Positions 34,439 to 45,063 are shown, counted from the first letter of the stretch. The stretch is DNA of 64,000 nucleotides from an uncultured delta proteobacterium (GCA_963755125.1 CAVWIP010000011.1:73304-137303), one strand, 5' to 3'. The notes: generated from the sequence alone by a model not told the origin. Made by a program: numbers and translations.

Positions 34439-36478
34439 ATGCTTGATGTCGCCTCACTTGGGCCGCTGGTCGACCAGCGCGATGTGATCCTGGTCACCGG
34501 CAAGGGTGGCACGGGCAAGAGCACCCTGGTGGCCGCCCTGGCCGCCCTGGCCGCCCAGCGCCGCGGGGGCGCGGTTGCGGTCGAGTTCTCCGCGCACCGG
34601 CGCCTGCCTGACCTGATCGCGCCGGAAGGCGGCGTCAGGGTGGTCAAGATCGATCTGGACACCGCGCTGGAGCCAGCCTTGCGGCGGCTGGTCAACATCC
34701 CCATGCTGGCCCAGGCGGTCCTGCGCAACCGGGTGGTGCGCCAGTTCATCCGTACCTCACCGGCCATGCGCGAGATGATCGTGCTCGACGAGTTGCGCGC
34801 CCTGGTCGACGAGAGCACGGCCCGGCGCCTGCCGGTGATCGTGGATCTGCCAGCCACCGGCCATGCCCTGTCGTTCCTGGACACGCCCCGTGCCGTGCAC
34901 CGCATGTTCCGCATCGGGCCCATCGCGCACGCGGCCGAGCGGGTCCAGCGCCTGTTGCTCGACGGCAAGCGCTGCGAGATGGTGACCATCACCTTGCCCG
35001 AGGAATTGCCGGTCAACGAGACACTCGAACTTCTGCGCAAGGCCCGTCAGATGGGCATTGCCGCCCGAATCGTCGTAGTCAACCAGGTCCCGGCCATGCT
35101 TCTGCACGCCAGCGACCGGCCGCTGCTCGAAGTCCTGCAACGTGAGAGCGAGGAAGCGCTGGCGCACCTGGCGCTGGCGGCGCAGAGCCAGCTTGATGGG
35201 ATGGACCACGCGCGAAAGCAGATCGAGCGTCTGCGCGGTCTGGAAAACGCAAACGTGGTGGAGTTCCCGGCCCGGCCTCCGGCGCCCGCACCTGGCAACG
35301 GGCGATTGGCGCACACTGTGGAACCTTCCGCTGGCAGTGCAGCTCAACTGGCCACGCTCATCGCCGATGCGCCGCTGGTGGTCTGCGTGGGACCGGGCGG
35401 CGTGGGCAAGACCACCTTGTCGGCGCTTCTGGCCTTGCGCCAGGCTGCGGCCGGACGGCGCGCCCTGGTGCTCACCATCGATCCCGCGCGCCGGCTGGCC
35501 GACGCGCTTGGGCTGGTCGAGTTGACCAACGATCCGATGGAGCTGACCGGTTTCCGCAAGATGCACCCGACGGGCACGCTGAGCGCGCTCATGCTCGACC
35601 CCACCGCGACCTTCGATCACATGATCGCGCTGCTGGTGCCCGATCCGGCGCGGCGAGAAGCGCTGCTGTCGAACCGGGTCTACCAGCACATCTCGCGCAG
35701 CCTGTCGGGGACCCTGGAATACATGGCGGTCGAGCGGGTGCACGAACTGTTTCGCACCGGCCGCTTCGAGCGCATCGTGCTGGATACCCCGCCCACCGGC
35801 AACGCCGTGGATTTTCTCGAGGCGCCCGATCGGGTGGCCACCTTCTTCAGCGACAAGATCACCCGCTGGTTCATGCCCGCGGCGGCGACGTCATCCTGGA
35901 CCTCGCGCCTGTGGAGCCGGGCCGGGGCCGCGGCGACGTCGCTCATCGCGCGGGTGGCTGGCCCGTCGTTCGTGGACGAGACCGTCGGGTTCTTCGCGGC
36001 CTTCTCCGACCTGCTCGGCCATTTCCGCTCGCGCGGCGAACAGGTCGGCCGCCTGCTGCGCGACCCGCGCACCGTGTTCCTGGTGGTGTGCGCACCGGAT
36101 CCGGCTCGCATCGTCGAAGCCCAGGTCATCAGCGAGCACCTGGCCGACGAAGGCTGTGTGCCCCGCGCCTTCATCGTCAACCGGGTGGAAGAAGCCTTCT
36201 TGCCCGGTCCCGGCGAGATCGAACGCGCGGTGGAGCGCGCGGCGGCCCTGCTGGGTGGGCTGGAAGAGCGCGAGCAGACGCGGGCCTTCATGGATCGCCT
36301 AGAGACCTTGCGCCGGCAGCAGGAGTCGGCTGCCGCGCTTCACGCCGAAGTGGTGGAGGCGGTCCGCGAATTCGCCGCCCCTCGTCCCGTGTTCACCGTG
36401 CCCCGCATCCCGGTCGGCGAGACCCCGCGCGATTCGCTGCTCGCCATGTACCTGGGATTGTTTGCCAGGGACGAGTGA
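34439..36478 (+). CDS. Tandem two-domain ArsA/Get3-family ATPase (ArsA-like)
   Basis: Two P-loops (VTGKGGTGKST; VGPGGVGKTT) and two A-loop/switch motifs (DLPATGHALSFLD; LDTPPTGNAVDFLE). Confidence 0.75.
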   Translation: MLDVASLGPLVDQRDVILVTGKGGTGKSTLVAALAALAAQRRGGAVAVEFSAHRRLPDLIAPEGGVRVVKIDLDTALEPALRRLVNIPMLAQAVLRNRVVRQFIRTSPAMREMIVLDELRALVDESTARRLPVIVDLPATGHALSFLDTPRAVHRMFRIGPIAHAAERVQRLLLDGKRCEMVTITLPEELPVNETLELLRKARQMGIAARIVVVNQVPAMLLHASDRPLLEVLQRESEEALAHLALAAQSQLDGMDHARKQIERLRGLENANVVEFPARPPAPAPGNGRLAHTVEPSAGSAAQLATLIADAPLVVCVGPGGVGKTTLSALLALRQAAAGRRALVLTIDPARRLADALGLVELTNDPMELTGFRKMHPTGTLSALMLDPTATFDHMIALLVPDPARREALLSNRVYQHISRSLSGTLEYMAVERVHELFRTGRFERIVLDTPPTGNAVDFLEAPDRVATFFSDKITRWFMPAAATSSWTSRLWSRAGAAATSLIARVAGPSFVDETVGFFAAFSDLLGHFRSRGEQVGRLLRDPRTVFLVVCAPDPARIVEAQVISEHLADEGCVPRAFIVNRVEEAFLPGPGEIERAVERAAALLGGLEEREQTRAFMDRLETLRRQQESAAALHAEVVEAVREFAAPRPVFTVPRIPVGETPRDSLLAMYLGLFARDE

Positions 36479-36887
36479 GTCGCGCAACACCACGCCCCCT
36501 GCCCGTGTCTCACCCCAGCGTGGCGACCAACCCCGATCGGATGATCCTTTCGTCGTGTGTCAGCAACGTGCAAAGCGTTCAAGCGAAGGGGGTACCCGAT
36601 CCCCCAGGCTCCAGGGACTGCCCGACGCCTCTTCCCGGTCGCATGTCGCCCCGCCGCCGGCCACCACTTTTTGAGAAGCTACGGTGGTCTCACGCAAAGT
36701 ATGGGCAAGGGCGAAAGCCCTGCCCGCCACCTTGCGATACGGAAGAATCTGACCCACTCTGCAGACCCTCCTTCTGACATCCAGCTACGTACAAGACCAA
36801 AGGCCAAACCGAGGGGCCGTGCACGTAGGGCCTTGCCTCCGGGTCTTTCGTCTTGGCCACGTAAATATGTATTGATGTGTTTCTATA

Positions 36888-37280
36888 TTGACATTGGTCG
36901 ATGCTCGGTCCAGGCTGAGTTGCGTGACGAAGCGTCTAGCCATCGCGGAACGGCCAAGCAAGGAAGCCCCTTATCTTTCGCCGCGCACGAAGTTCCGCAC
37001 CAAGAACGTTACCCCGTTTGCCGCCCTGTTCAAGGCGCTCGCCGACGAGACTCGACTGGATATCTTGGTATTCCTCGCTGCCGCTGGCGACGCCATCTGC
37101 GTGTGCGAGATCGAGGACCACGTCGAGCTGCTGTCGCAGCCCACCATCTCGCACCACCTGCGTCAGCTTCGCGAGGCGGGCTTGGTCACGACCGAGCGTC
37201 GTGGCACATGGATCTACTACGCCGTCGACAAGTCAATCCGCGTCCGACTGGCCGAATTTGTTGCTCTCTTCGACGAATAG
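36888..37280 (+). CDS. arsR: ArsR/SmtB family transcriptional repressor (copy 1)
   Basis: HTH region FKALADETRLDILVFL...ICVCEIE...LSQPTISHHLRQLREAGLV with a CVC metalloid site. The start is uncertain (long N-terminal extension). An AT-rich TTGACA-containing promoter lies at ~36855-36890. Confidence 0.7.
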   Translation: MTLVDARSRLSCVTKRLAIAERPSKEAPYLSPRTKFRTKNVTPFAALFKALADETRLDILVFLAAAGDAICVCEIEDHVELLSQPTISHHLRQLREAGLVTTERRGTWIYYAVDKSIRVRLAEFVALFDE

Positions 37281-37311
37281 TTTTTTTGCCAAAATATATC
37301 GACACCTGTCA

Positions 37312-38244
37312 ATGAAGGAGAACGTGATGTCCAATCCTCTCGTTACTATCGAACCTGAAGATGAATCCGCCTGTTGCTCCTCCTCCTGCTGCCCCGGTGG
37401 CGACGCCACGCCCATGCAAGACATCCGCGAAGTGGTCAAACAGCGCTACGGCCAAGCGGTACGGGCTCTCGCCCAGGGTGCGAAGCCATCGTGTTGTGGC
37501 TCCTCGGTGAAGGACGCGGCGACCGGCATGGGCGGAACGGATCCGATTACGCGCGACCTCTATGCCACTGACCAGACGTCCGGGCTGCCTGAGGAAGCCC
37601 TGCTCGCCTCGTTCGGCTGTGGCAATCCGACGACCCTCGCCGAGTTGCAACCGGGTGAGACAGTCCTTGATCTCGGCTCCGGGGGCGGCATCGACGTGCT
37701 GCTATCGGCAAGACGGGTTGGGCCGACGGGCAAGGCATACGGCCTCGACATGACGGACGAGATGCTCGCCCTTGCCGAGAAAAATAGAGCCAAGGCCGGC
37801 GCGACCAACGTCGCCTTTCTAAGAGGCACCATCGAAGCGATCCCGCTGCCAGACGGCACGGTGGATGTGGTCATCTCGAACTGCGTGATCAACCTGTCGG
37901 GAGACAAGGACAAGGTTCTGCGAGAGGCGTTTCGCGTGCTCAAGCCGGGTGGCCGGGTCGCCGTGTCCGACATTGTCCTTCGCCGCGAGTTGCCCGAGTC
38001 GGCGCGCAAGTCCATGACCCTGTGGACCGGCTGTGTCGCGGGGGCGCTGGTGGAGGCCGAGTACGTCGGCAAACTTCGCGAGACCGGGTTTCGCGACATC
38101 ACGGTCGAAGCGACCAGGATCTACGACAAGGAGGAAGTTGCCGAAATGGCTTCGTCCTCGTGCTGTGGCGGAGACATGACAGAGACGCTTGCCGCGCTCG
38201 ATGGCGCGATCATGAGCGCGTTCATCCGGGCCAAAAAGCCATGA
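37312..38244 (+). CDS. arsM: Arsenite S-adenosylmethionine methyltransferase ArsM
   Basis: Conserved Cys (SACCSSSCC, GCG, SNCVINL) and SAM motif VLDLGSGGGIDV. AAGGAG RBS before the alternative ATG at 37327. The track ORF extends upstream into arsR and was rejected. Confidence 0.85.
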   Translation: MKENVMSNPLVTIEPEDESACCSSSCCPGGDATPMQDIREVVKQRYGQAVRALAQGAKPSCCGSSVKDAATGMGGTDPITRDLYATDQTSGLPEEALLASFGCGNPTTLAELQPGETVLDLGSGGGIDVLLSARRVGPTGKAYGLDMTDEMLALAEKNRAKAGATNVAFLRGTIEAIPLPDGTVDVVISNCVINLSGDKDKVLREAFRVLKPGGRVAVSDIVLRRELPESARKSMTLWTGCVAGALVEAEYVGKLRETGFRDITVEATRIYDKEEVAEMASSSCCGGDMTETLAALDGAIMSAFIRAKKP

Positions 38245-38365
38245 CCGCGTGCAGGCACATTTCCTTCGCCAACGGTCTCACCTCAGGCACCTCAAGGCAC
38301 TTGTGGAAGTCCGATACCACTCGTTCATCGGCGATTTTTTTTGGGGCTGCTTTAGAAAGGAAACC

Positions 38366-38857
38366 ATGGATGACGTAATTAGTGTGTTGTTTGTTTGTAT
38401 TCACAACGCCGCGCGGAGTCGGATGGCGGAAGCATTGCTGCGAGACCTTGGAGGGCCTAGGTTCGAGGTGACAAGCTCCGGCTACGAGCCTCAAGAGGTC
38501 AATCCTATCGTCGTCGAAGCGCTGGATCTCGTCGGGCTGAAAGTCGCTCACCCTGGACCGCAGCCTTCGGTCTTCGATCTATTCAAGGCGGGCCGACTCT
38601 TCGGCTACGTCATCTCGGTTTGCGATTACGAGCACGGACAAAGGTGTCCGCTATTCCCCGGAGTCACTGAGCGGCTCTCTTGGAGCTTTCCAGATCCAAG
38701 CACGTTTACCGGCAGCCACAACGAACGGCTCGCGCGCGTCGTCGAGGTTCGGGATGCAATTCAAGATAGCATCGAGGCATGGCTTGAGACTTTGTCTATC
38801 ACCCCCACCCATACCCGCGCGAAAGCTTCACAAGCACGCAAGGAGATCACGAAATGA
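38366..38857 (+). CDS. arsC: Arsenate reductase, LMW-PTP (thioredoxin-coupled) type (copy 1)
   Basis: VLFVCIHNAARSRMAEAL has the C-x5-R(S) P-loop. The ATG at 38366 follows a GAAAGGAAACC RBS. Locally AT-richer. Confidence 0.8.
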   Translation: MDDVISVLFVCIHNAARSRMAEALLRDLGGPRFEVTSSGYEPQEVNPIVVEALDLVGLKVAHPGPQPSVFDLFKAGRLFGYVISVCDYEHGQRCPLFPGVTERLSWSFPDPSTFTGSHNERLARVVEVRDAIQDSIEAWLETLSITPTHTRAKASQARKEITK

Positions 38858-38863
38858 AGATGG

Positions 38864-39610
38864 TTGTTCGGAACTACCGCGCCACTTCTGGCAATTCTGC
38901 CTGTCGCCACGACACTTGTGGGGTGCTCGCATATGCAGTTTCCAGTCTTGCCGGCTGCCCGAGTTGCCGCTGATCGCTCGCTCGACATGCGCGGCAGGAC
39001 GATTGCGGTGTTCATCATCTATCACGCCCGCAAGATGCTCACCGGCATGCAGGACGGCCAGGTGCTGGAACTGGTGACCGACGCCTATGATGCCGTGGAC
39101 AGCGAGATTCGCGCCTGGTGTCACGCGACCCATCAGACGCTGCGGCAAGCGGAGCCGGGACCGGGCCTGGTCCGCTACTACATAGAGAAGGTGCCCTTCA
39201 GGCCGAGCGGAAACAAGTTGGCGATGGTGATCTCGAACCCGGGCCTTGAAGAACTGCTGACCCCACTCGGCCTGGCGCTCACAGCGGCGCTGTCGGGCAG
39301 CGATGTTCACTTGGTTTTTCAGGGGCCTGCGGTGCGGGTTCTCAAGCAAGGATTCTCAGCCAAGCTGTCCGGTTGGAGCTGGCCGTTCAGCGGGTTTGCG
39401 CGTGACGGACTAGCTGAAGCCGGCCACTTGCCACCGCAGGACAAGCTGGCCCAGTTGCGCGAACTGGGCGCCAAGATCTATGTCTGCGGTCCGTCCATGG
39501 ACCACTTCGGGGTCAGTCGCAGTGAGCTCGCCTTCCCCGACGTCATCGTCGGAGAGTACGCGGTCTTCCTGGGCGCCATGGCAGGAGCTGACCTCACCAT
39601 AGTCCTGTAG
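38864..39610 (+). CDS. TusA-like (lacking CPxP Cys) + DsrE/DsrF-like fusion protein, possible lipoprotein signal
   Basis: LELVTDAYDAVDSEIRAWCHATHQTL...YYIEK parallels TusA LEVLATDPGS..DIPAWCR..GH. The C-terminal half resembles DsrE/DsrF (MVISNPGLEELLTPLGLALTAALSG...IYVCGPSM). TTG start with an LVGC lipobox-like segment; the start is uncertain. Confidence 0.5.
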   Translation: MFGTTAPLLAILPVATTLVGCSHMQFPVLPAARVAADRSLDMRGRTIAVFIIYHARKMLTGMQDGQVLELVTDAYDAVDSEIRAWCHATHQTLRQAEPGPGLVRYYIEKVPFRPSGNKLAMVISNPGLEELLTPLGLALTAALSGSDVHLVFQGPAVRVLKQGFSAKLSGWSWPFSGFARDGLAEAGHLPPQDKLAQLRELGAKIYVCGPSMDHFGVSRSELAFPDVIVGEYAVFLGAMAGADLTIVL

Positions 39611-39630
39611 CGCAGAAGAGTTCTCTTGCC

Positions 39631-39660
39631 TTGACCCGTATATTCGGCTATACGAATATA
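39631..39660 (+). promoter_or_regulatory. Putative ars promoter/operator: TTGACC -35 followed by dyad TATATTCG-N6-CGAATATA
   Basis: Perfect 8-bp inverted arms, AT-rich, 10 nt upstream of the arsR2 start. Confidence 0.5.
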
Positions 39661-39670
39661 TGGGTGACGC

Positions 39671-40084
39671 ATGAAAGACGCGGCTCTGTTCTTCAAGATT
39701 CTTGCCGACGAGGCACGGCTCAAGATCATCTGGCTGCTCTTTCACCATGACGAGCTGTGCGTGTGCGACGTCATGGCGGCGCTCGGCATCACGCAATCCA
39801 AGGCTTCGCGGCACCTGGCCACGCTCAAGCACGCGGGTCTGGTGACCGACCGGAAGGACGGTCTTTGGTCGCACTACGCGCTCCGGCCGGCGAAAGACGG
39901 GCTGGCCCAAACCCATCTCGAACTTCTGCGGCGCAGCCTGGCCGACAGACCTGATGCGGCTTCGCTTCTGAAGACGCTGCGCCGTTGGCTTCACGGCAAG
40001 AACCGCAGCGTGGCCTGCGCCAAAGCCTCCGCCCGTGCCGCCAAGAGGAAGACCACGACACGGCAACGAGGGGCAGCTCGATGA
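39671..40084 (+). CDS. arsR: ArsR/SmtB family transcriptional repressor (copy 2)
   Basis: [44 protein letters not shown], with the ELCVCD As(III) site. Confidence 0.85.
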
Positions 40085-41160
40085 CTCGTCAGACGGCAGC
40101 AACTCAGGGCGTAACGAAGGGGCTGTCGTTTCTTGACCGCTTTTTGACGGTTTGGATCTTCCTCGCCATGGCGGTTGGAGTTGGCGGCGGGTATCTGTTC
40201 CCCGGCATTGTCCCTCTAGTCAATCGATTCAACGTTGGGACGACCAACATCCCCATCGCCATCGGTCTCATCCTGATGATGTACCCGCCGCTAGCCAAGG
40301 TCCGCTACGAGGAGATGGGGCCGGTCTTCCGCAACTTCAAGGTGCTCGGGCTTTCGCTCATCCAGAACTGGGTGATCGGTCCGATCCTGATGTTCGGTCT
40401 GGCCGTGCTCTTCCTGCACGACAAGCCCGAGTACATGGTTGGGCTCATTCTGATCGGCCTTGCCCGCTGCATCGCCATGGTCATCGTGTGGAACGATTTG
40501 GCCAAGGGCGACAGCGAGTACTGCGCCGGCCTTGTTGCCCTCAACTCGATCTTCCAGGTGCTCTTCTTTTCGGTCTCCGCCTACGTCTTCATCACCATTC
40601 TCCCGACCTGGTTCGGCCTGAACGGCGTGCTGGTGAACATCACCATCGGCGAGATCGCCAAGACCGTCTTCATCTACCTCGGCATCCCCTTCATCGCCGG
40701 GGTGGTCACGCGGTTCTCGTTGATCAAGTTGAAGAGCAAGGACTGGTATCATACGGCGTTCATCCCGAAGATCAGCCCCATCACGCTCATTGCGCTGCTT
40801 TTCACCATCCTGGTGATGTTCTCGCTCAAGGGCGCATACATCGTGCAGCTTCCGTTTGACGTCGTGCGGATCGCCATCCCGCTGCTCATCTACTTCGTGT
40901 TGATGTTCTTCCTCTCCTTCTTCATGTCGAAGAAGGTGGGCGCGACCTACGGCCAGGCGACGACGCTGTCATTCACGGCGGCCTCTAACAACTTCGAGCT
41001 CGCCATCGCGGTAGCCATCGCGACCTTCGGGATTAACCACGGCGCCGCCTTCGCTGCCGTCATCGGCCCGCTTGTGGAGGTGCCAGTCATGATCGGTCTG
41101 GTCAACGTCGCGCTCTGGCTGGGGCGTAGGTACTACCGCACGCAGGAGGCTTCCACATGA
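40081..41160 (+). CDS. acr3: ACR3 family arsenite efflux transporter
   Basis: About 10 TM helices. N-terminal [13 protein letters not shown]...[12 protein letters not shown] is typical of Acr3. ATG overlaps the arsR2 stop (ATGA). Confidence 0.85.
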
Positions 41161-41573
41161 AGGGCATCCTTTTCCTTTGCGTGGCCAACTCGGCCCGCAG
41201 CCAGATGGCCGAGGGGATTGCCCGAACATTGGCCCCGGCGGGAACCAAGGTATGGTCTGCTGGCTCGCGCCCCACCGGCGTTCGGGCCGAGGCGATCGCG
41301 GTGCTCAAGGAAATCGGCATAGACATCTCTGAACAGCGGGCGAAGGCAGTCGCGGAGATCCCGGCGGCCGAGGTCGACACGGTCATCACCCTGTGCGGCG
41401 AGGAGGAGTGCCCAGTGTTTCTCGGAAAGGCCACGCGACTGCATTGGGGCTTGCCTGATCCTGCGGCGGCGAAGGGATCGGAAGCGGAGCGCCTGGACGC
41501 CTTTCGCAAGGTGCGCGACGAACTGCGCCGGCGGATCGCTGACCTCCTTGCGCAATTTGCATCGAGCAGGTGA
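41157..41573 (+). CDS. arsC: Arsenate reductase, LMW-PTP type (copy 2)
   Basis: [20 protein letters not shown] has the C-x5-R P-loop. Overlaps the acr3 stop. Confidence 0.85.
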
Positions 41574-41671
41574 TGATGGTCCTTGGATTGCAGCACCGAT
41601 TGCCTCTCCCCTGCAGCCACGATGCAGGGGCTCATCGCCCTGCTCCTTGCCAAGAACGAATACGCCCCACT

Positions 41672-42487
41672 ATGAGTACCGCTCGTCATCTGCTCGCGCT
41701 GGCTTGTGTGCTTGTCACTGTCGCATGCTCGAGCCGGACTAGAAACAGCGCCGCGTCCCACGTTGGCGGCGCACACGCCGCCGCCGCAACGGCTGCGCCA
41801 ACCACTGATGAAGCCGCCGTCTCAAATGGACAGATGGTGGCAGCGCACGATCCATCCCACCCGCCCATCGACTGTCCCCTGCGCAAGCAGGGCCTCGACT
41901 CGGCCCAACTGCGGCCATTCAAAGACACCGCACGCTACATAGCGTTTCTCGAACGCCCTGACCGGGCTGCCTGGCAGAAGCCCGATGCAGTGGTGGCGGC
42001 TCTGGGGCTGACCGGCAAGGAGATCATCGTCGATATCGGAGCCGGCTCTGGCTATTTTTCTTTCCGACTTGCGCGAGCCGTGCCGCAAGGAAAGGTGATC
42101 GCGCTGGACGTGGAGCCCGAGATGATCCGCCACGTCCACCACAAGGCGATGACCGAGGGTGTGCGCAATGTGCAGGTGGCCTTCGCCAAACCCGACGATC
42201 CCGGCGTCCCTTTGGAGGCTGACCTCGTCTTCATGTGCGACGTGCTTCACCACATCCAGGATCGCCCAGCATGGCTGGCCAAGCTCGCCAAGGAGATGCA
42301 CACGGGAGCCCGGCTTGCGCTGGTCGAGTTCAAAGAAGGCGAGCTGCCCGAGGGTCCGCCGGAGGCGGTGAAGCTATCGCGGGCACAACTCGTGACTCTG
42401 GTCACCGGCGCCGGCCTCGCACTCGACAGCGAAAAGCCGGATCTGCTCCCGTACCAGACCTTTCTCGTCTTCCGCAAAGCGCGCTGA
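41672..42487 (+). CDS. Lipoprotein-signal class I SAM-dependent methyltransferase
   Basis: Signal/lipobox LLALACVLVTVAC|SS. SAM motif IVDIGAGSGYFSF...VIALDVEPEM. The track ORF starts at 41570. Confidence 0.6.
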   Translation: MSTARHLLALACVLVTVACSSRTRNSAASHVGGAHAAAATAAPTTDEAAVSNGQMVAAHDPSHPPIDCPLRKQGLDSAQLRPFKDTARYIAFLERPDRAAWQKPDAVVAALGLTGKEIIVDIGAGSGYFSFRLARAVPQGKVIALDVEPEMIRHVHHKAMTEGVRNVQVAFAKPDDPGVPLEADLVFMCDVLHHIQDRPAWLAKLAKEMHTGARLALVEFKEGELPEGPPEAVKLSRAQLVTLVTGAGLALDSEKPDLLPYQTFLVFRKAR

Positions 42488-42650
42488 GGGTGCCCTGGAA
42501 AGCGGACTTGACCGACGCCGTGCTATCCGAGAAATCATCGCCTCACATGGTGCCCGTCGGCAAGGTTGCGTTTATCAGGGACCGCTGTCCTAGGATCGGG
42601 AGAGAGCCATCGGTCTGACCCGCCTCCTATTTCAGTTGTAACGAACACCT

Positions 42651-43427
42651 TCATTGCAAAGAAGGGCCAGCGGCCGTGCCCAGGACGGTCGGTAAGGAAA
42701 ACAGTCTGCGGGCGAATGACGTGGGCGGGGCTTTGCGCACGTCGCCCAGCAAACCGCAAGCGACCACCTGACCCTTTTCAAGCACCGCCACGCGGCTGGC
42801 AAGGGCTTCGACATCGGTGGCGTCGTGGGTGACGAGAATGGTGGGCAAGCCGAGGGAACGAATGGACTCGGCCAGGAACGCGCGCACCTCGACGCGGGCC
42901 TCGACATCTAGCGAAGCCGTGGGCTCATCGAGCAGCAGCGCCTTGGGAGAGGAAGCCAGTGCCCGCGCGAGTGCGACCCGCTGCCGTTCACCGCCGGAAA
43001 GCTGCGATGGATTCCGCCCGGCCAGATTGCCGATTGCGAAACGCTCTAGCCACGTCATGGCCTCGTCGCGCCGTTGCTTTGCGCTGGCCCGCTGCGAACG
43101 ACACGCGAGCGCGAAGGCGACGTTATCGATGGCGGTGAGATGGGGAAACAGTCCAAAGTCCTGTGGCAGGTAGGCAAGGTGGCGATCTTCAGTGGGAAGA
43201 TCGATGGCCAGAGCCGCATCGAAGAGAACCTCGTCGGACAGCACGATGCGGCCGCGCTCAGGCCTGCGCAGACCCAGGACGGTCAGCAGCAAGCTGGTCT
43301 TGCCCGACCCGTTCGGCCCGACCAGGGCCAGCAGCTCGGCACTAACCTCCAGTGAGGCTTGCAGCGAGAATGCTCCCAGTGTGGCTTGCACGGCGATGGA
43401 GAGTCGAGGAACGGGATTTCCCGTCAT
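42651..43427 (-). CDS. modC: Molybdate ABC transporter ATP-binding protein
   Basis: Walker A GPNGSGKTS, signature LSGGERQRV, Walker B LLLDEP. Lies in an operon with modB and modA. Confidence 0.8.
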   Translation of the reverse strand: MTGNPVPRLSIAVQATLGAFSLQASLEVSAELLALVGPNGSGKTSLLLTVLGLRRPERGRIVLSDEVLFDAALAIDLPTEDRHLAYLPQDFGLFPHLTAIDNVAFALACRSQRASAKQRRDEAMTWLERFAIGNLAGRNPSQLSGGERQRVALARALASSPKALLLDEPTASLDVEARVEVRAFLAESIRSLGLPTILVTHDATDVEALASRVAVLEKGQVVACGLLGDVRKAPPTSFARRLFSLPTVLGTAAGPSLQ

Positions 43428-44257
43428 GGCGTCGCCGCCCCACGCGCGGCTTCAAATCCGCGATTGAATCGCCGCAAGACGAGCAAGAGAGCAAAGGCGA
43501 ACACGACCAACAAGAGCGACAAAGCCTGCGCGGTATGGATGTCGAGTTCCAGAGCGGTGTAAATCGCGAGCGGCAGGGTCTGCGTCTTTCCCGTCATGTT
43601 CCCCGCGAACATCAACGTGGCACCAAATTCCCCCAGCGCGCGTGCCCAGCTCATGGCCGCCCCACCGATCAGCCAGGGGCGGGCGAGCGGTAGCGCCACT
43701 CGAAAAAACAGGCGCGGCGGCGAGGCGCCCAGGCTTCGCGCCACGGCCAGCAAATTGGGATCCAACCGGCCAAAGGCCTGCACCGCGGCCTGCAGGAAGA
43801 ACGGTGCCGAAACAAAGACCTGCGCCATGATCACTGCGACCACGCTGAAAGCAGGCGTCCAGCCCAGGCGTTCGAGGATTCCACCGAAGAGTCCGCGTCG
43901 CCCGAAGGCGAGGAGCAGCGCAATGCCGCCCACTGCGGGCGGAATCACCACGGGAAGCTGCAACAGGATCTCCAGCCAGCGCGCCGAACGCCAGCGCGAA
44001 CGCGCCAGCCACCAGGCGAGAGGTGTGCCACCCACGACCACCAACACAACCGAGATCAGAGTCGTTCCAAGGCTCAGGCGCAGCGCGGGCCAGGTCAAGG
44101 AACAGCCGAGACCACGCCAGATGGTTTCGGGCCCACCGTCGAGAACCAGGGCCACGAAGGGCAGTACGATGAAGAGCAACAAGAGGCCGCCCATGCCCAG
44201 CATGACCGCGCTGTACAGGCGACGACTTCTCGCCCGAGACAGAACCGTTTGGCTCAC
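43424..44257 (-). CDS. modB: Molybdate ABC transporter permease
   Basis: 6 TM helices with an EAA-like loop (ARSLGASPPRLFFRVALPLARP). 4-nt overlaps with both neighbours. Confidence 0.8.
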   Translation of the reverse strand: MSQTVLSRARSRRLYSAVMLGMGGLLLLFIVLPFVALVLDGGPETIWRGLGCSLTWPALRLSLGTTLISVVLVVVGGTPLAWWLARSRWRSARWLEILLQLPVVIPPAVGGIALLLAFGRRGLFGGILERLGWTPAFSVVAVIMAQVFVSAPFFLQAAVQAFGRLDPNLLAVARSLGASPPRLFFRVALPLARPWLIGGAAMSWARALGEFGATLMFAGNMTGKTQTLPLAIYTALELDIHTAQALSLLLVVFAFALLLVLRRFNRGFEAARGAATP

Positions 44258-45063
44258 TTCTTCCCTTGTTGCTCGACCTGGTTGAAGCCGGCCTCGACCA
44301 ACGCCTCTTGCCCTTCCTTGGACAGGACAAGTTTCACAAATGCGCGCGCCAGATCGGGATGAGGCGCGGCCTTCAAGACAGCGATCGGGTACTCGGCCAC
44401 GATGTTGATCTGCTTGGGAATCTCGATGATCTGGACCTTGTCGGGCATGGTCAACGCGTCGGTCTTGTACACGATACCGGCGTCGGCTTCACCCAACGCA
44501 ACCTTGGTCAATACCTGCCGCACGTTCAGCTCGCGCGAGCGCACTCGCGCAAGGATCTGTTCGTGGAGGGACTTGCCGTAGAGCTTCTCAGACGCCGCAA
44601 AGATGGCCTCGGTGTAGGCCCCGATCGGCACCTCGGCCGCACCCACCACCAGGTGTGTGGTCTTGGGCAGATCCGCGAAGCTGCGCAATTTGGCCGGGTT
44701 GTTCTTGGGCACGACCACGACTGGCAGATTGCGAGCGAAGACCACTGGCTCGACAACCACCTCTCTATCTGCCAGCAGCTTCATGTGCTTCCAGTCTGCC
44801 GAGGCAAACACGTCGACCTTGGCACCCTGTTCAATCTGCACGCGCAAATCCTGGCTGCCTGCGAAGTTGAAACGAACCTTCGAGTTTGGGTGGCGCTTCC
44901 CGAAAGTCAGCGCGACGTTCTGCAAAACCTCGTGCAGCGACGCGGCCGCATACACCACGACCTCCTGCGCCTCGCCGTCACTCGCCCGAATTGTAGAAAG
45001 TGGCGCAATCGAACAGGCGCCAACCAGGGCTATGACAGCGAATTCGCGACGATTCATGCACAC
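44254..45063 (-). CDS. modA: Molybdate-binding periplasmic protein
   Basis: VVVYAAASLHEVLQNVALTF...FAGSQDLRVQIEQGAKVDVFASAD parallels E. coli ModA (VFAAASL...SS..LARQIEAGAPADLFISAD). Signal peptide present. Confidence 0.85.
   Translation of the reverse strand: MCMNRREFAVIALVGACSIAPLSTIRASDGEAQEVVVYAAASLHEVLQNVALTFGKRHPNSKVRFNFAGSQDLRVQIEQGAKVDVFASADWKHMKLLADREVVVEPVVFARNLPVVVVPKNNPAKLRSFADLPKTTHLVVGAAEVPIGAYTEAIFAASEKLYGKSLHEQILARVRSRELNVRQVLTKVALGEADAGIVYKTDALTMPDKVQIIEIPKQINIVAEYPIAVLKAAPHPDLARAFVKLVLSKEGQEALVEAGFNQVEQQGKK

Follow-up and report, generated by a model that had tools for sequence, protein, structure and literature searches.

Why should an arsenic-resistance cluster carry a gene assembled from two sulfur-relay folds, one of which lacks the cysteine that defines it? 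The question arises in DNA of an uncultured delta proteobacterium (GCA_963755125.1, CAVWIP010000011.1:73304-137303), of which we analysed a stretch of 64,000 nucleotides, hereafter the window. An open reading frame (ORF) at 38864..39610 encodes a TusA-like domain fused to a DsrE-like domain in the midst of ars genes. Comparisons of sequences, predicted structure and gene neighbourhoods indicate that a sulfur-relay pair has turned into a single-cysteine, regulator-coupled and partly exported protein that appears to have been recruited to arsenic islands. The parts of the ORF are as follows.

38864..39610, + strand: whole TusA-like/DsrE fusion ORF, 248 amino acids from a TTG start, with a signal peptide, a Cys-less TusA-like domain and a DsrE2-like domain
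38864..38926, + strand: lipoprotein-type signal peptide MFGTTAPLLAILPVATTLVG/C21 (then SH), predicted by comparison with relatives
38924-38926, + strand: codon of Cys21 in the predicted lipobox L-V-G-C21
38975..39193, + strand: TusA-like domain, residues 38-110, from a Pfam match below cut-off, Foldseek, and YedF and TusA alignments
39005-39007, + strand: codon of A48, at the catalytic-Cys position of TusA
39215..39607, + strand: DsrE2-like domain, residues 118-248, with Pfam DsrE above cut-off
39485-39487, + strand: codon of C208, the invariant Cys in the motif Y-V-C-G-P-S-M

The C-terminal half makes the fusion protein a bona fide member of the DsrE superfamily, with DsrE2B and DrsE_2 as its closest relatives. 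The Pfam DsrE profile PF02635 matches residues 118-244 with E=2.6e-11 (44.1 bits, cut-off 22.7). In an AlphaFold2 model built on a 38-sequence alignment (mean predicted local distance difference test score 92.5, predicted template modelling score 0.85), a beta-alpha-beta-alpha-beta-beta module precedes a Rossmann-like alpha/beta domain. When Foldseek was run against the PDB, the best fold match of the C-terminal half was DsrE2B (2qs7; template modelling (TM) score 0.81 on the target, E=2e-9), with further matches to 3pnx, DsrE3A (3mc3), YchN (1jx7), DsrEFH and TusBCD. The N-terminal half matched Escherichia coli TusA (3lvj_C; TM score 0.85, root-mean-square deviation 1.7 Å over 77 columns, 27% identity), and YeeD was among its further fold matches. 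Its Pfam match to TusA (PF01206) covers residues 55-109 only and reaches 22.8 bits, below the cut-off of 28.6; because only profile positions 17-70 were aligned, the CPxP-bearing part of the profile is unmatched. In profile-to-PDB alignments, the CPYP cysteine of YedF (1je3) falls opposite A48, and the alignment with E. coli TusA starts only past its Cys19. As it scores below the Pfam threshold and lacks the catalytic cysteine that defines the family, we call this half TusA-like, not TusA. NCBIfam holds no model for the fusion protein, its best match being a weak one to YedF, and Pfam detected no rhodanese domain in it.

The same alignments bring C208 into register with the conserved cysteines of 2qs7 (FACSTTME) and 3mc3 (YVCVQSLK), at the strand-to-helix site where DsrE/TusD proteins have their active-site cysteine. 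The sole candidate for a reactive centre is this residue, C208, in the DsrE2-like domain. A previous reading of this locus, made from the DNA sequence alone, had proposed a TusA-like domain without CPxP joined to a DsrE-like domain. Both parts of that assignment stand: DsrE scores above its Pfam cut-off, Foldseek recovers the two folds, and profile searches found the DsrE and TusA families, the latter below cut-off, and assigned no unrelated family. The loss at the catalytic site, A48 in the window protein, extends to the whole family.

To delineate this family, a word-indexed search was used, which yielded 226 homologues, all with the same two-domain architecture; 121 close homologues were aligned for residue counts. 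An exhaustive profile search among 1.84 billion cluster representatives returned 608 matches at E<=1e-3 and 66 at E<=1e-30, many of them fragments, and the family is therefore small. All 77 genome matches out of 77 are metagenome-assembled genomes, so that the family is known solely from metagenomes; a tblastn search of the PLSDB plasmids gave no match, and no cultured or plasmid-borne homologue was found. Those homologues that have a name go under generic labels, 'DsrE family protein' at NCBI and 'predicted peroxiredoxin/TusA-related sulfurtransferase' at JGI, and many bear a precomputed PF13686 assignment. A cysteine at the TusA catalytic position occurs in none of the 121 homologues, nor in any family member among 150 cluster representatives. 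The site reads D-x-R-G-K-T/K-I-T-T-F, and (T/A)-(T/V)-F replaces Cys-Pro-x-Pro in every member, while the scaffold motifs LExxTD, D-I-x-A-W-C and RYxIxK are conserved. The only CPxP-bearing matches are remote proteins with several TusA domains and a DrsE_2 domain (P0254, P0261). C208 is kept in 121/121 homologues, nearly all of which retain Y-x-C-G-P-S-M; C86, in the 'AWC' motif of the TusA-like domain, is semi-conserved and present in about half of them. The family members among the 150 representatives show this cysteine pattern too. Ratios of non-synonymous to synonymous substitution rates (dN/dS) were computed within the clade of the window protein; they lie at 0.14-0.23 in the TusA-like half, at 0.05-0.16 in the DsrE-like half and at 0.14-0.35 in the signal-peptide segment. 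Both domains are under purifying selection. At such ratios the Cys-less domain is maintained by selection; it is not a decaying relic.

What ties the gene to arsenic? In the window, the order of the cluster is arsR1-arsM-arsC1-[fusion gene]-arsR2-acr3-arsC2, followed by a methyltransferase gene, and its features are the following.

36888..37280, + strand: arsR1 (ICVCE motif), first gene of the arsR1-arsM-arsC1-[fusion] unit, with an uncertain start codon
37312..38244, + strand: arsM, arsenite methyltransferase (NCBIfam NF008823, 345 bits, cut-off 263)
38366..38857, + strand: arsC1, divergent LMWP-type arsenate-reductase-like gene (Pfam LMWPc; NCBIfam arsC_pI258 at 71 bits, below cut-off)
39639..39660, no strand: 8-bp perfect inverted repeat TATATTCG-n6-CGAATATA in a TTGACC...-10-like stretch directly upstream of arsR2, read off the sequence
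39671-40084, + strand: arsR2 (ELCVCD motif), with an ArsR/SmtB match
40078-41160, + strand: acr3 (NCBIfam acr3, 447 bits, cut-off 283)
41157-41573, + strand: arsC2, with an LMWPc match

The fusion gene is the last of the arsR1-arsM-arsC1-X unit and is co-oriented with its neighbours within the ArsR-controlled cluster. Its position between arsC1 and arsR2, as given by the sequence-only reading, leaves gaps of 7 bp and 60 bp, respectively. The inverted repeat is likely to be an ArsR operator/promoter at the start of the next transcription unit; a scan of 36300-42700 for consensus sigma-70 promoters and terminators found nothing informative.

The loci of the closest relatives, at 72-87% identity (L001, L093, L085, L081-84, L088-89, L095 and L086), link the gene to a regulator even more tightly. 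Directly upstream of the fusion gene, with an ATGA stop/start overlap, this clade has a gene for a 118-amino-acid Cys-rich ArsR (LNQDCGCAHGC...GLITCVRSGRRVQC), of the general pattern DCGCxxGC ... C ... C. The fusion gene is the sole cargo of this regulator in the closest relatives. In L088 and L089, the Cys-rich arsR and the fusion gene alone make up a two-gene operon. Judging from this layout, the fusion gene is co-transcribed with ArsR in the closest relatives. Rearrangements notwithstanding, other ars genes lie near several of these loci: arsC, arsR, acr3 and arsC in L001; a convergent arsR-arsC-acr3-arsC cluster, next to pst, in L081-84; arsR, arsC-arsN, acr3, arsM and arsR in L086; and, in L085, an LMWP gene as the next one downstream. 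In the window, the C-terminal tail of ArsC1 (...AWLETLSITPTHTRAKASQARKEITK, then stop) and the junction of Shine-Dalgarno (SD) sequence and ATGA resemble the 3' end of the relatives' Cys-rich arsR (...LQETLAAIGVRCSATEAKK, then stop; window 38780-38857 versus L001 7860-7940). This resemblance suggests that deletion or recombination swapped the Cys-rich arsR for arsR1-arsM-arsC1 in the window lineage.

Two unusual Cys-rich ArsR subtypes are coupled to the family (L001 7582-7938, L088 6618-6974, L006 3244-3582). The first reads DCGCxxGC...ITCxRxGRRxxC. The second, NCCSPEG...ESCCSV...ICDC...ITCEREGQTYRC, precedes arsM in Nitrospirota.

Does the association hold beyond this clade? We assembled 170 loci from genomes, metagenomes and exact-protein look-ups, which collapse to 117 lineages at 90% identity; in 53 of these, at least 8 kb of flank lies inside +-5 kb. 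Neighbours were counted by tblastn and NCBIfam where possible, in preference to clustering, since the latter had merged shadow ORFs with ArsM and chained ArsR, ArsC and Acr3 together. An ArsM-type methyltransferase lies within 5 kb in 13 of the 53 full-flank lineages; any of ArsM, LMWP-ArsC and Acr3 in 17 (32%); and any of these or ArsR in 20 (38%). Such adjacency concerns a minority of lineages (17-20/53), and the figure ignores phylogeny. By a rough estimate from genome size, which is not a computed control, well under 1% of random genes would have an arsM within 5 kb, and the observed share is far above this. Seven of ten neighbouring methyltransferases tested pass the NCBIfam arsenite methyltransferase cut-off, and four lineages have an ArsI/CadI neighbour. 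The association recurs across several phyla, at least five by the full-flank counts, and is seen in Myxococcota-like, Nitrospirota, Desulfobacterota-like, Acidimicrobiia and Solirubrobacterales genomes with varying gene order. In a Pfam census of 132 immediate neighbour ORFs (<700 bp) from 64 lineages, ArsM-type methyltransferases ranked first (9/132), followed by MarR (4-7), ArsR, ECF (extracytoplasmic function) sigma factors and ABC ATPases (4 each), which makes ArsM the commonest specifically identified neighbour family. None of rhodanese, SQR, persulfide dioxygenase, Hdr, Dsr, Sox or thioredoxin was among the top 25 neighbour families of the census, and no Hdr or Dsr genes were among the recurrent neighbours in the 117 lineages. 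The link to arsenic put forward in the sequence-only reading is supported by these frequencies and by the predicted co-transcription with ArsR. We regard the fusion gene as a candidate new accessory arsenic gene.

A second recurrent layout is restricted to the lipoprotein forms of the family, in which a co-oriented gene for a SigZ-family ECF sigma factor lies 80-190 bp upstream (L078 7359-7922, L005 3034-3609, L133 151-711, L057 4692-5273 and others). The sigma factors of L078 and L005 score above the TIGR02959 cut-off. These proteins end in a CC-x14-16-C tail with the motif E-C-C-x-I-x-x-D-x-x-G-x-I-x-D-x-x-C, which may be a built-in thiol or metal sensor. No anti-sigma gene was found between the sigma gene and the lipoprotein-type homologue. 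That the lipoprotein itself might be the anti-sigma partner was considered and rejected, because an exported protein cannot bind a cytoplasmic sigma factor and because the SigZ-type factors have their own Cys-rich tail. Altogether, ArsR proteins with CxC-type sites, SigZ-type sigma factors and MarR proteins adjoin genes of the family, whose expression appears to be coupled to regulators of the thiophilic-metalloid or stress type.

This variety of regulators fits a broader explanation, namely that the protein protects against thiol stress, reactive sulfur, soft metals or electrophiles in general, with C208 as a scavenger and ars islands as one of several regulons that recruited it, and would have no chemistry specific to arsenic. 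Most lineages have no ars neighbours, MarR/OhrR-like regulators are adjacent in 5-7 lineages, SigZ-type ECF sigma genes precede many lipoprotein forms, and the DsrE4 group has been proposed to detoxify reactive sulfur species (PMC11094781). However, SQR, persulfide dioxygenase, rhodanese and TauE/YeeE-type genes are absent from the recurrent neighbours, whereas the commonest specifically identified neighbour family is bona fide ArsM. An arsR-arsM pair is, moreover, often found 2-3 kb from the SigZ-linked fusion loci, and the dedicated regulator of the closest clade is an ArsR with a CxC-type site. We therefore hold a general stress role to be possible, if rather unlikely.

Where does the protein act? 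Signal-peptide prediction divides the family into exported lipoproteins in Gram-negative lineages and cytoplasmic forms in Actinomycetota, Dehalococcoidia and some Nitrospirota. About 45 of the 121 homologues carry a lipoprotein signal peptide, such as MKTVARTVAPLLLILLAAALLGG/C and MFKHLSLVALASLVIG/C. In the window clade, every member has one once short gene calls are extended upstream, and the relatives show a K/R n-region, an h-region and an L-x-G-C lipobox (e.g. MKTVARTVAPLLLILLAAALLGGC; lipobox criterion [LVI][ASTVI][GAS]C). The fusion protein of this clade is thus probably exported and lipid-anchored at Cys21, and its predicted site, given this signal peptide, is outside the cytoplasm.

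The copy in the window is less straightforward. It keeps the h-region and the LVGC lipobox, but its n-region has no Lys or Arg, the positive charges having been lost through a frameshift. In the relatives, the start ATG and the stop codon of the gene before it share bases (ATGA), and the SD sequence is well spaced. The corresponding signals are still discernible in the window:

38840..38857, + strand: predicted ancestral translation start, SD AAGGAG at 38840-45 and ATG at 38854-56 overlapping the arsC1 stop (ATGA), from DNA comparison with L001, L093 and others

The spacing, AAGGAG-n8-ATGA, is that of the relatives. Owing to a 1-nt indel that follows codon 6, ATG 38854 is no longer in frame (CGGAACTACC, versus CGAACAGTGG in L001, and likewise versus L093), and it now opens an out-of-frame ORF of 39 codons (MKMVVRNYRATSGNSACRHDTCGVLAYAVSSLAGCPSCR, then stop) within 38840-38973. 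The identical frameshifted sequence is present in three independent metagenome contigs (L090, L091 and L092), which share 99.5-99.7% identity with the window across 6-12 kb and show a single-nucleotide polymorphism in the SD region; an assembly error can thus be discounted. The only start that keeps the signal peptide in frame is TTG 38864, 18 nt from the SD sequence and followed by an n-region without positive charge. The alternative start, ATG 38933 (M24), assumed in the gene call of P0001, would give a cytoplasmic product. Programmed frameshifting at the start was considered and dropped, as no known slippery or +1 motif is present. With a frameshifted start, a TTG far from the SD sequence and an uncharged n-region, both expression and export of the window copy are uncertain, and its export is best described as probable but not certain.

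It could be argued from the same frameshift that the window copy is impaired or becoming a pseudogene, in a family that is functional elsewhere. The indel relative to L001 and L093 uncouples the SD sequence from the ATG and opens the 39-codon ORF in all three contigs, and little or no full-length lipoprotein would then be made. Against such decay, the ORF is intact over 248 codons with its h-region and lipobox in frame, and TTG 38864 lies 7 nt past the arsC1 stop, so that termination-reinitiation is possible. The fusion gene also shows no excess divergence, with 1-2 differences per 747 bp between the window and L090-L092, versus 0.35-0.45% overall. Impairment of this copy is, in our view, unlikely.

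The predicted export also bears on a role beside the ars enzymes in the cytoplasm. The sequence-only reading had suggested a redox partner for ArsC; for the exported clade, this is unlikely, as a lipoprotein signal is predicted there and LMWP ArsC is cytoplasmic. In a wider version of the idea, the protein would assist ArsC or ArsM as a thiol partner in the cytoplasm, recycling an enzyme disulfide or handing As(III) to ArsM. A similar role has been supposed for the AhpD-like and other redox domains that form part of some ArsM proteins, and NCBIfam recognises such ArsM-redox domain fusions. Signal-less forms of the family in Acidimicrobiia, Solirubrobacterales and Nitrospirota sit directly beside ArsM, and a start at M24 would place the window product in the cytoplasm as well. 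Nevertheless, lipoprotein signal peptides occur throughout the window clade and in about 45 of the 121 homologues, a single Cys is unable to perform the dithiol chemistry of thioredoxin or glutaredoxin, and adjacency to ArsC is conserved in neither order nor orientation. A partnership with ArsC or ArsM is accordingly quite improbable.

Compared with the sequence-only reading, the analysis thus adds the export signal, the overlap with a Cys-rich arsR, the frameshifted ancestral start and the finding that about two-thirds of the family lie outside ars clusters.

What, then, might the protein do? We tentatively favour, at somewhat less than an even chance, an accessory protein of arsenic-detoxification and methylation islands that derives from a TusA/DsrE pair and acts on trivalent arsenicals through C208. 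Trivalent arsenicals are favoured as the target because the genes that most often accompany the family are those for ArsM, ArsI and ArsR. The gene would probably be expressed under an As(III)-responsive ArsR, and C208 would act on As(III) and on MAs(III) and DMAs(III), the products of ArsM. Two options, to which we give roughly equal weight, can be envisaged. Either a persulfide on C208 would be handed to arsenic, giving thio-arsenicals that are less reactive with thiols, or C208 would itself bind arsenic, possibly in a DsrE-type trimer that supplies three cysteines. Thioarsenate handling, as suggested in the sequence-only reading, is a reasonable guess. That arsenic induces the gene, that the protein is a trimer and what C208 does chemically are what we infer, with some precedents: DsrE3-type proteins carry sulfur on a cysteine, and both DsrE3- and DsrE2B-type proteins as a rule form trimers (PMC4175335, PMC11094781). 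Free-standing TusA docks on DsrE3A, and docking needs the TusA cysteine (PMC4175335). It is tempting to speculate that the fusion makes TusA-DsrE docking permanent and the TusA cysteine dispensable. The TusA-like half, Cys-less but conserved, would be an integral adaptor or lid without catalytic function, and not a sulfur carrier. As the family comprises exported and cytoplasmic forms, its chemistry would therefore be independent of compartment-specific partners such as thioredoxin, ArsC or ArsM.

Several observations weigh against an accessory role of this kind. About two-thirds of the full-flank lineages have no ars gene within 5 kb. DsrE2B, the nearest solved relative, showed no reaction with the six sulfur compounds tried (PMC4175335). 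No obvious gene for a sulfur donor or reductant lies alongside that of the exported single-Cys protein. The coexistence of exported and cytoplasmic forms appears hard to fit to one partner-dependent mechanism. In the window itself, the doubts about expression and export discussed above count on the same side.

One may go further and propose a dedicated arsenic-sulfur enzyme or carrier under ArsR or SigZ control, in which a C208 persulfide would thiolate As(III) as well as the trivalent methylated species that ArsM makes, or MAs(III) that competitors make. It would be exported in Gram-negative lineages, and the Cys-less TusA domain would be a module for docking a substrate or partner. This stronger proposal seems improbable to us, yet its consequences would be considerable. 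Thio-arsenicals, including methylated ones, are thought to arise abiotically from biogenic sulfide, and our literature searches found no gene tied to their formation. If the proposal is true, the formation of (methyl)thioarsenates by organisms would have its first genetic determinant, and arsenic resistance a new mode. More generally, a conserved protein linked to ArsM and ArsR, with sulfur-carrier folds and one reactive cysteine, would make the arsenic-sulfur question directly testable. A fused sulfur-relay pair in which one partner is Cys-less yet under selection is also informative about the retention of pseudo-enzyme domains. Should the protein turn out to serve general thiol stress, it would still represent an unannotated, regulator-coupled family.

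Some further genes near the fusion gene deserve mention. A class I S-adenosylmethionine (SAM)-dependent methyltransferase gene at 41570-42487 (likely start ATG 41672) closes the second ars unit of the window. Its product begins MSTARHLLALACVLVTVAC-SS, an N-terminus resembling a lipoprotein signal peptide, which is odd for a SAM-requiring enzyme, and L064 has an 88%-identical copy that separates the fusion gene from arsR2. The stretch 34439-36478, just upstream of the ars cluster, encodes a 679-amino-acid, two-lobed ArsA/Get3-like ATPase, with NCBIfam BagB and BagA matches below their cut-offs. A modABC-like ABC transporter (42651-45063, - strand) adjoins the ars island. In L085 (3359-6119), a similar set of substrate-binding protein, permease and ATPase genes adjoins the fusion gene, which may reflect conserved synteny. 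In one Desulfobacterota-like lineage (L078 8728-9039), a gene for a 103-amino-acid ABM (cofactor-less monooxygenase-like) protein overlaps the 3' end of the fusion gene and is followed by a truncated ArsM-like methyltransferase gene without the N-terminal Cys region.

How does the family compare with known systems? Literature searches on DsrE or TusA with ars or arsM found no description of this fusion or of its place in ars clusters. Arsenite-responsive DsrE/F-like genes in a Thioalkalivibrio transcriptome paper were set aside as unrelated, being single-domain. With the TusA/YedF/YeeD family (PF01206), the N-terminal half has its fold and scaffold motifs in common, but that family has Cys-Pro-x-Pro, whereas the fusion proteins lack it and score below the Pfam cut-off. 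TusA itself can neither transfer sulfur nor bind DsrE3A without Cys18/19 (PMC4175335). For residues 118-248, DsrE2B (SSO1126, PDB 2QS7; Mcup_0682) and DsrE3A (SSO1125, PDB 3MC3) are the best matches in sequence and fold, with a conserved Cys at the same strand-to-helix position. They belong to a dsrE3A-dsrE2B-tusA sulfur-relay cluster in which TusA is the natural partner (PMC4175335, PMC11094781), and DsrE2B has no known activity (PMC4175335). Those proteins are stand-alone, cytoplasmic and encoded beside sHdr or Dsr genes, whereas the window family is fused, often exported according to prediction, and found with ars genes. The DsrE2 group was defined by Dsr/sHdr linkage (Liu et al. 2014), which the fusion family does not show in 117 lineages. 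SaoD of the proposed selenoprotein-associated organometallic (SAO) system is likewise a DsrE-family protein recruited to a metal or organometal gene neighbourhood and not to sulfur oxidation (bioRxiv 10.1101/2022.07.06.499078). However, it has an invariant CxxC and another Cys, no TusA-like domain and different neighbours, and the relationship found to the fusion family goes no further than the DsrE superfamily.

The multi-TusA(CPxP)-DrsE_2 proteins P0254 and P0261 and CstA of Staphylococcus aureus also combine TusA and DsrE-type domains on one polypeptide. Unlike the fusion family, they retain the cysteines of the TusA active site and are encoded in operons for sulfide detoxification (sqr, cstB), and CstA has a rhodanese domain in addition. 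Higgins et al. 2015 reportedly give the domain order of CstA as rhodanese-TusA-DsrE. In the CstR regulon, CstA is listed with the annotation of a multidomain sulfurtransferase (PMC5480029). The window protein has one reactive Cys, lacks both the TusA cysteine and a rhodanese domain, and lies in an ars context without sqr or pdo among its neighbours; it is not a sulfurtransferase of the CstA type. Its VCGPSM motif is resembled by the ACTMSM motif of the multi-TusA-DrsE_2 proteins, which are a Cys-containing version of the same domain combination.

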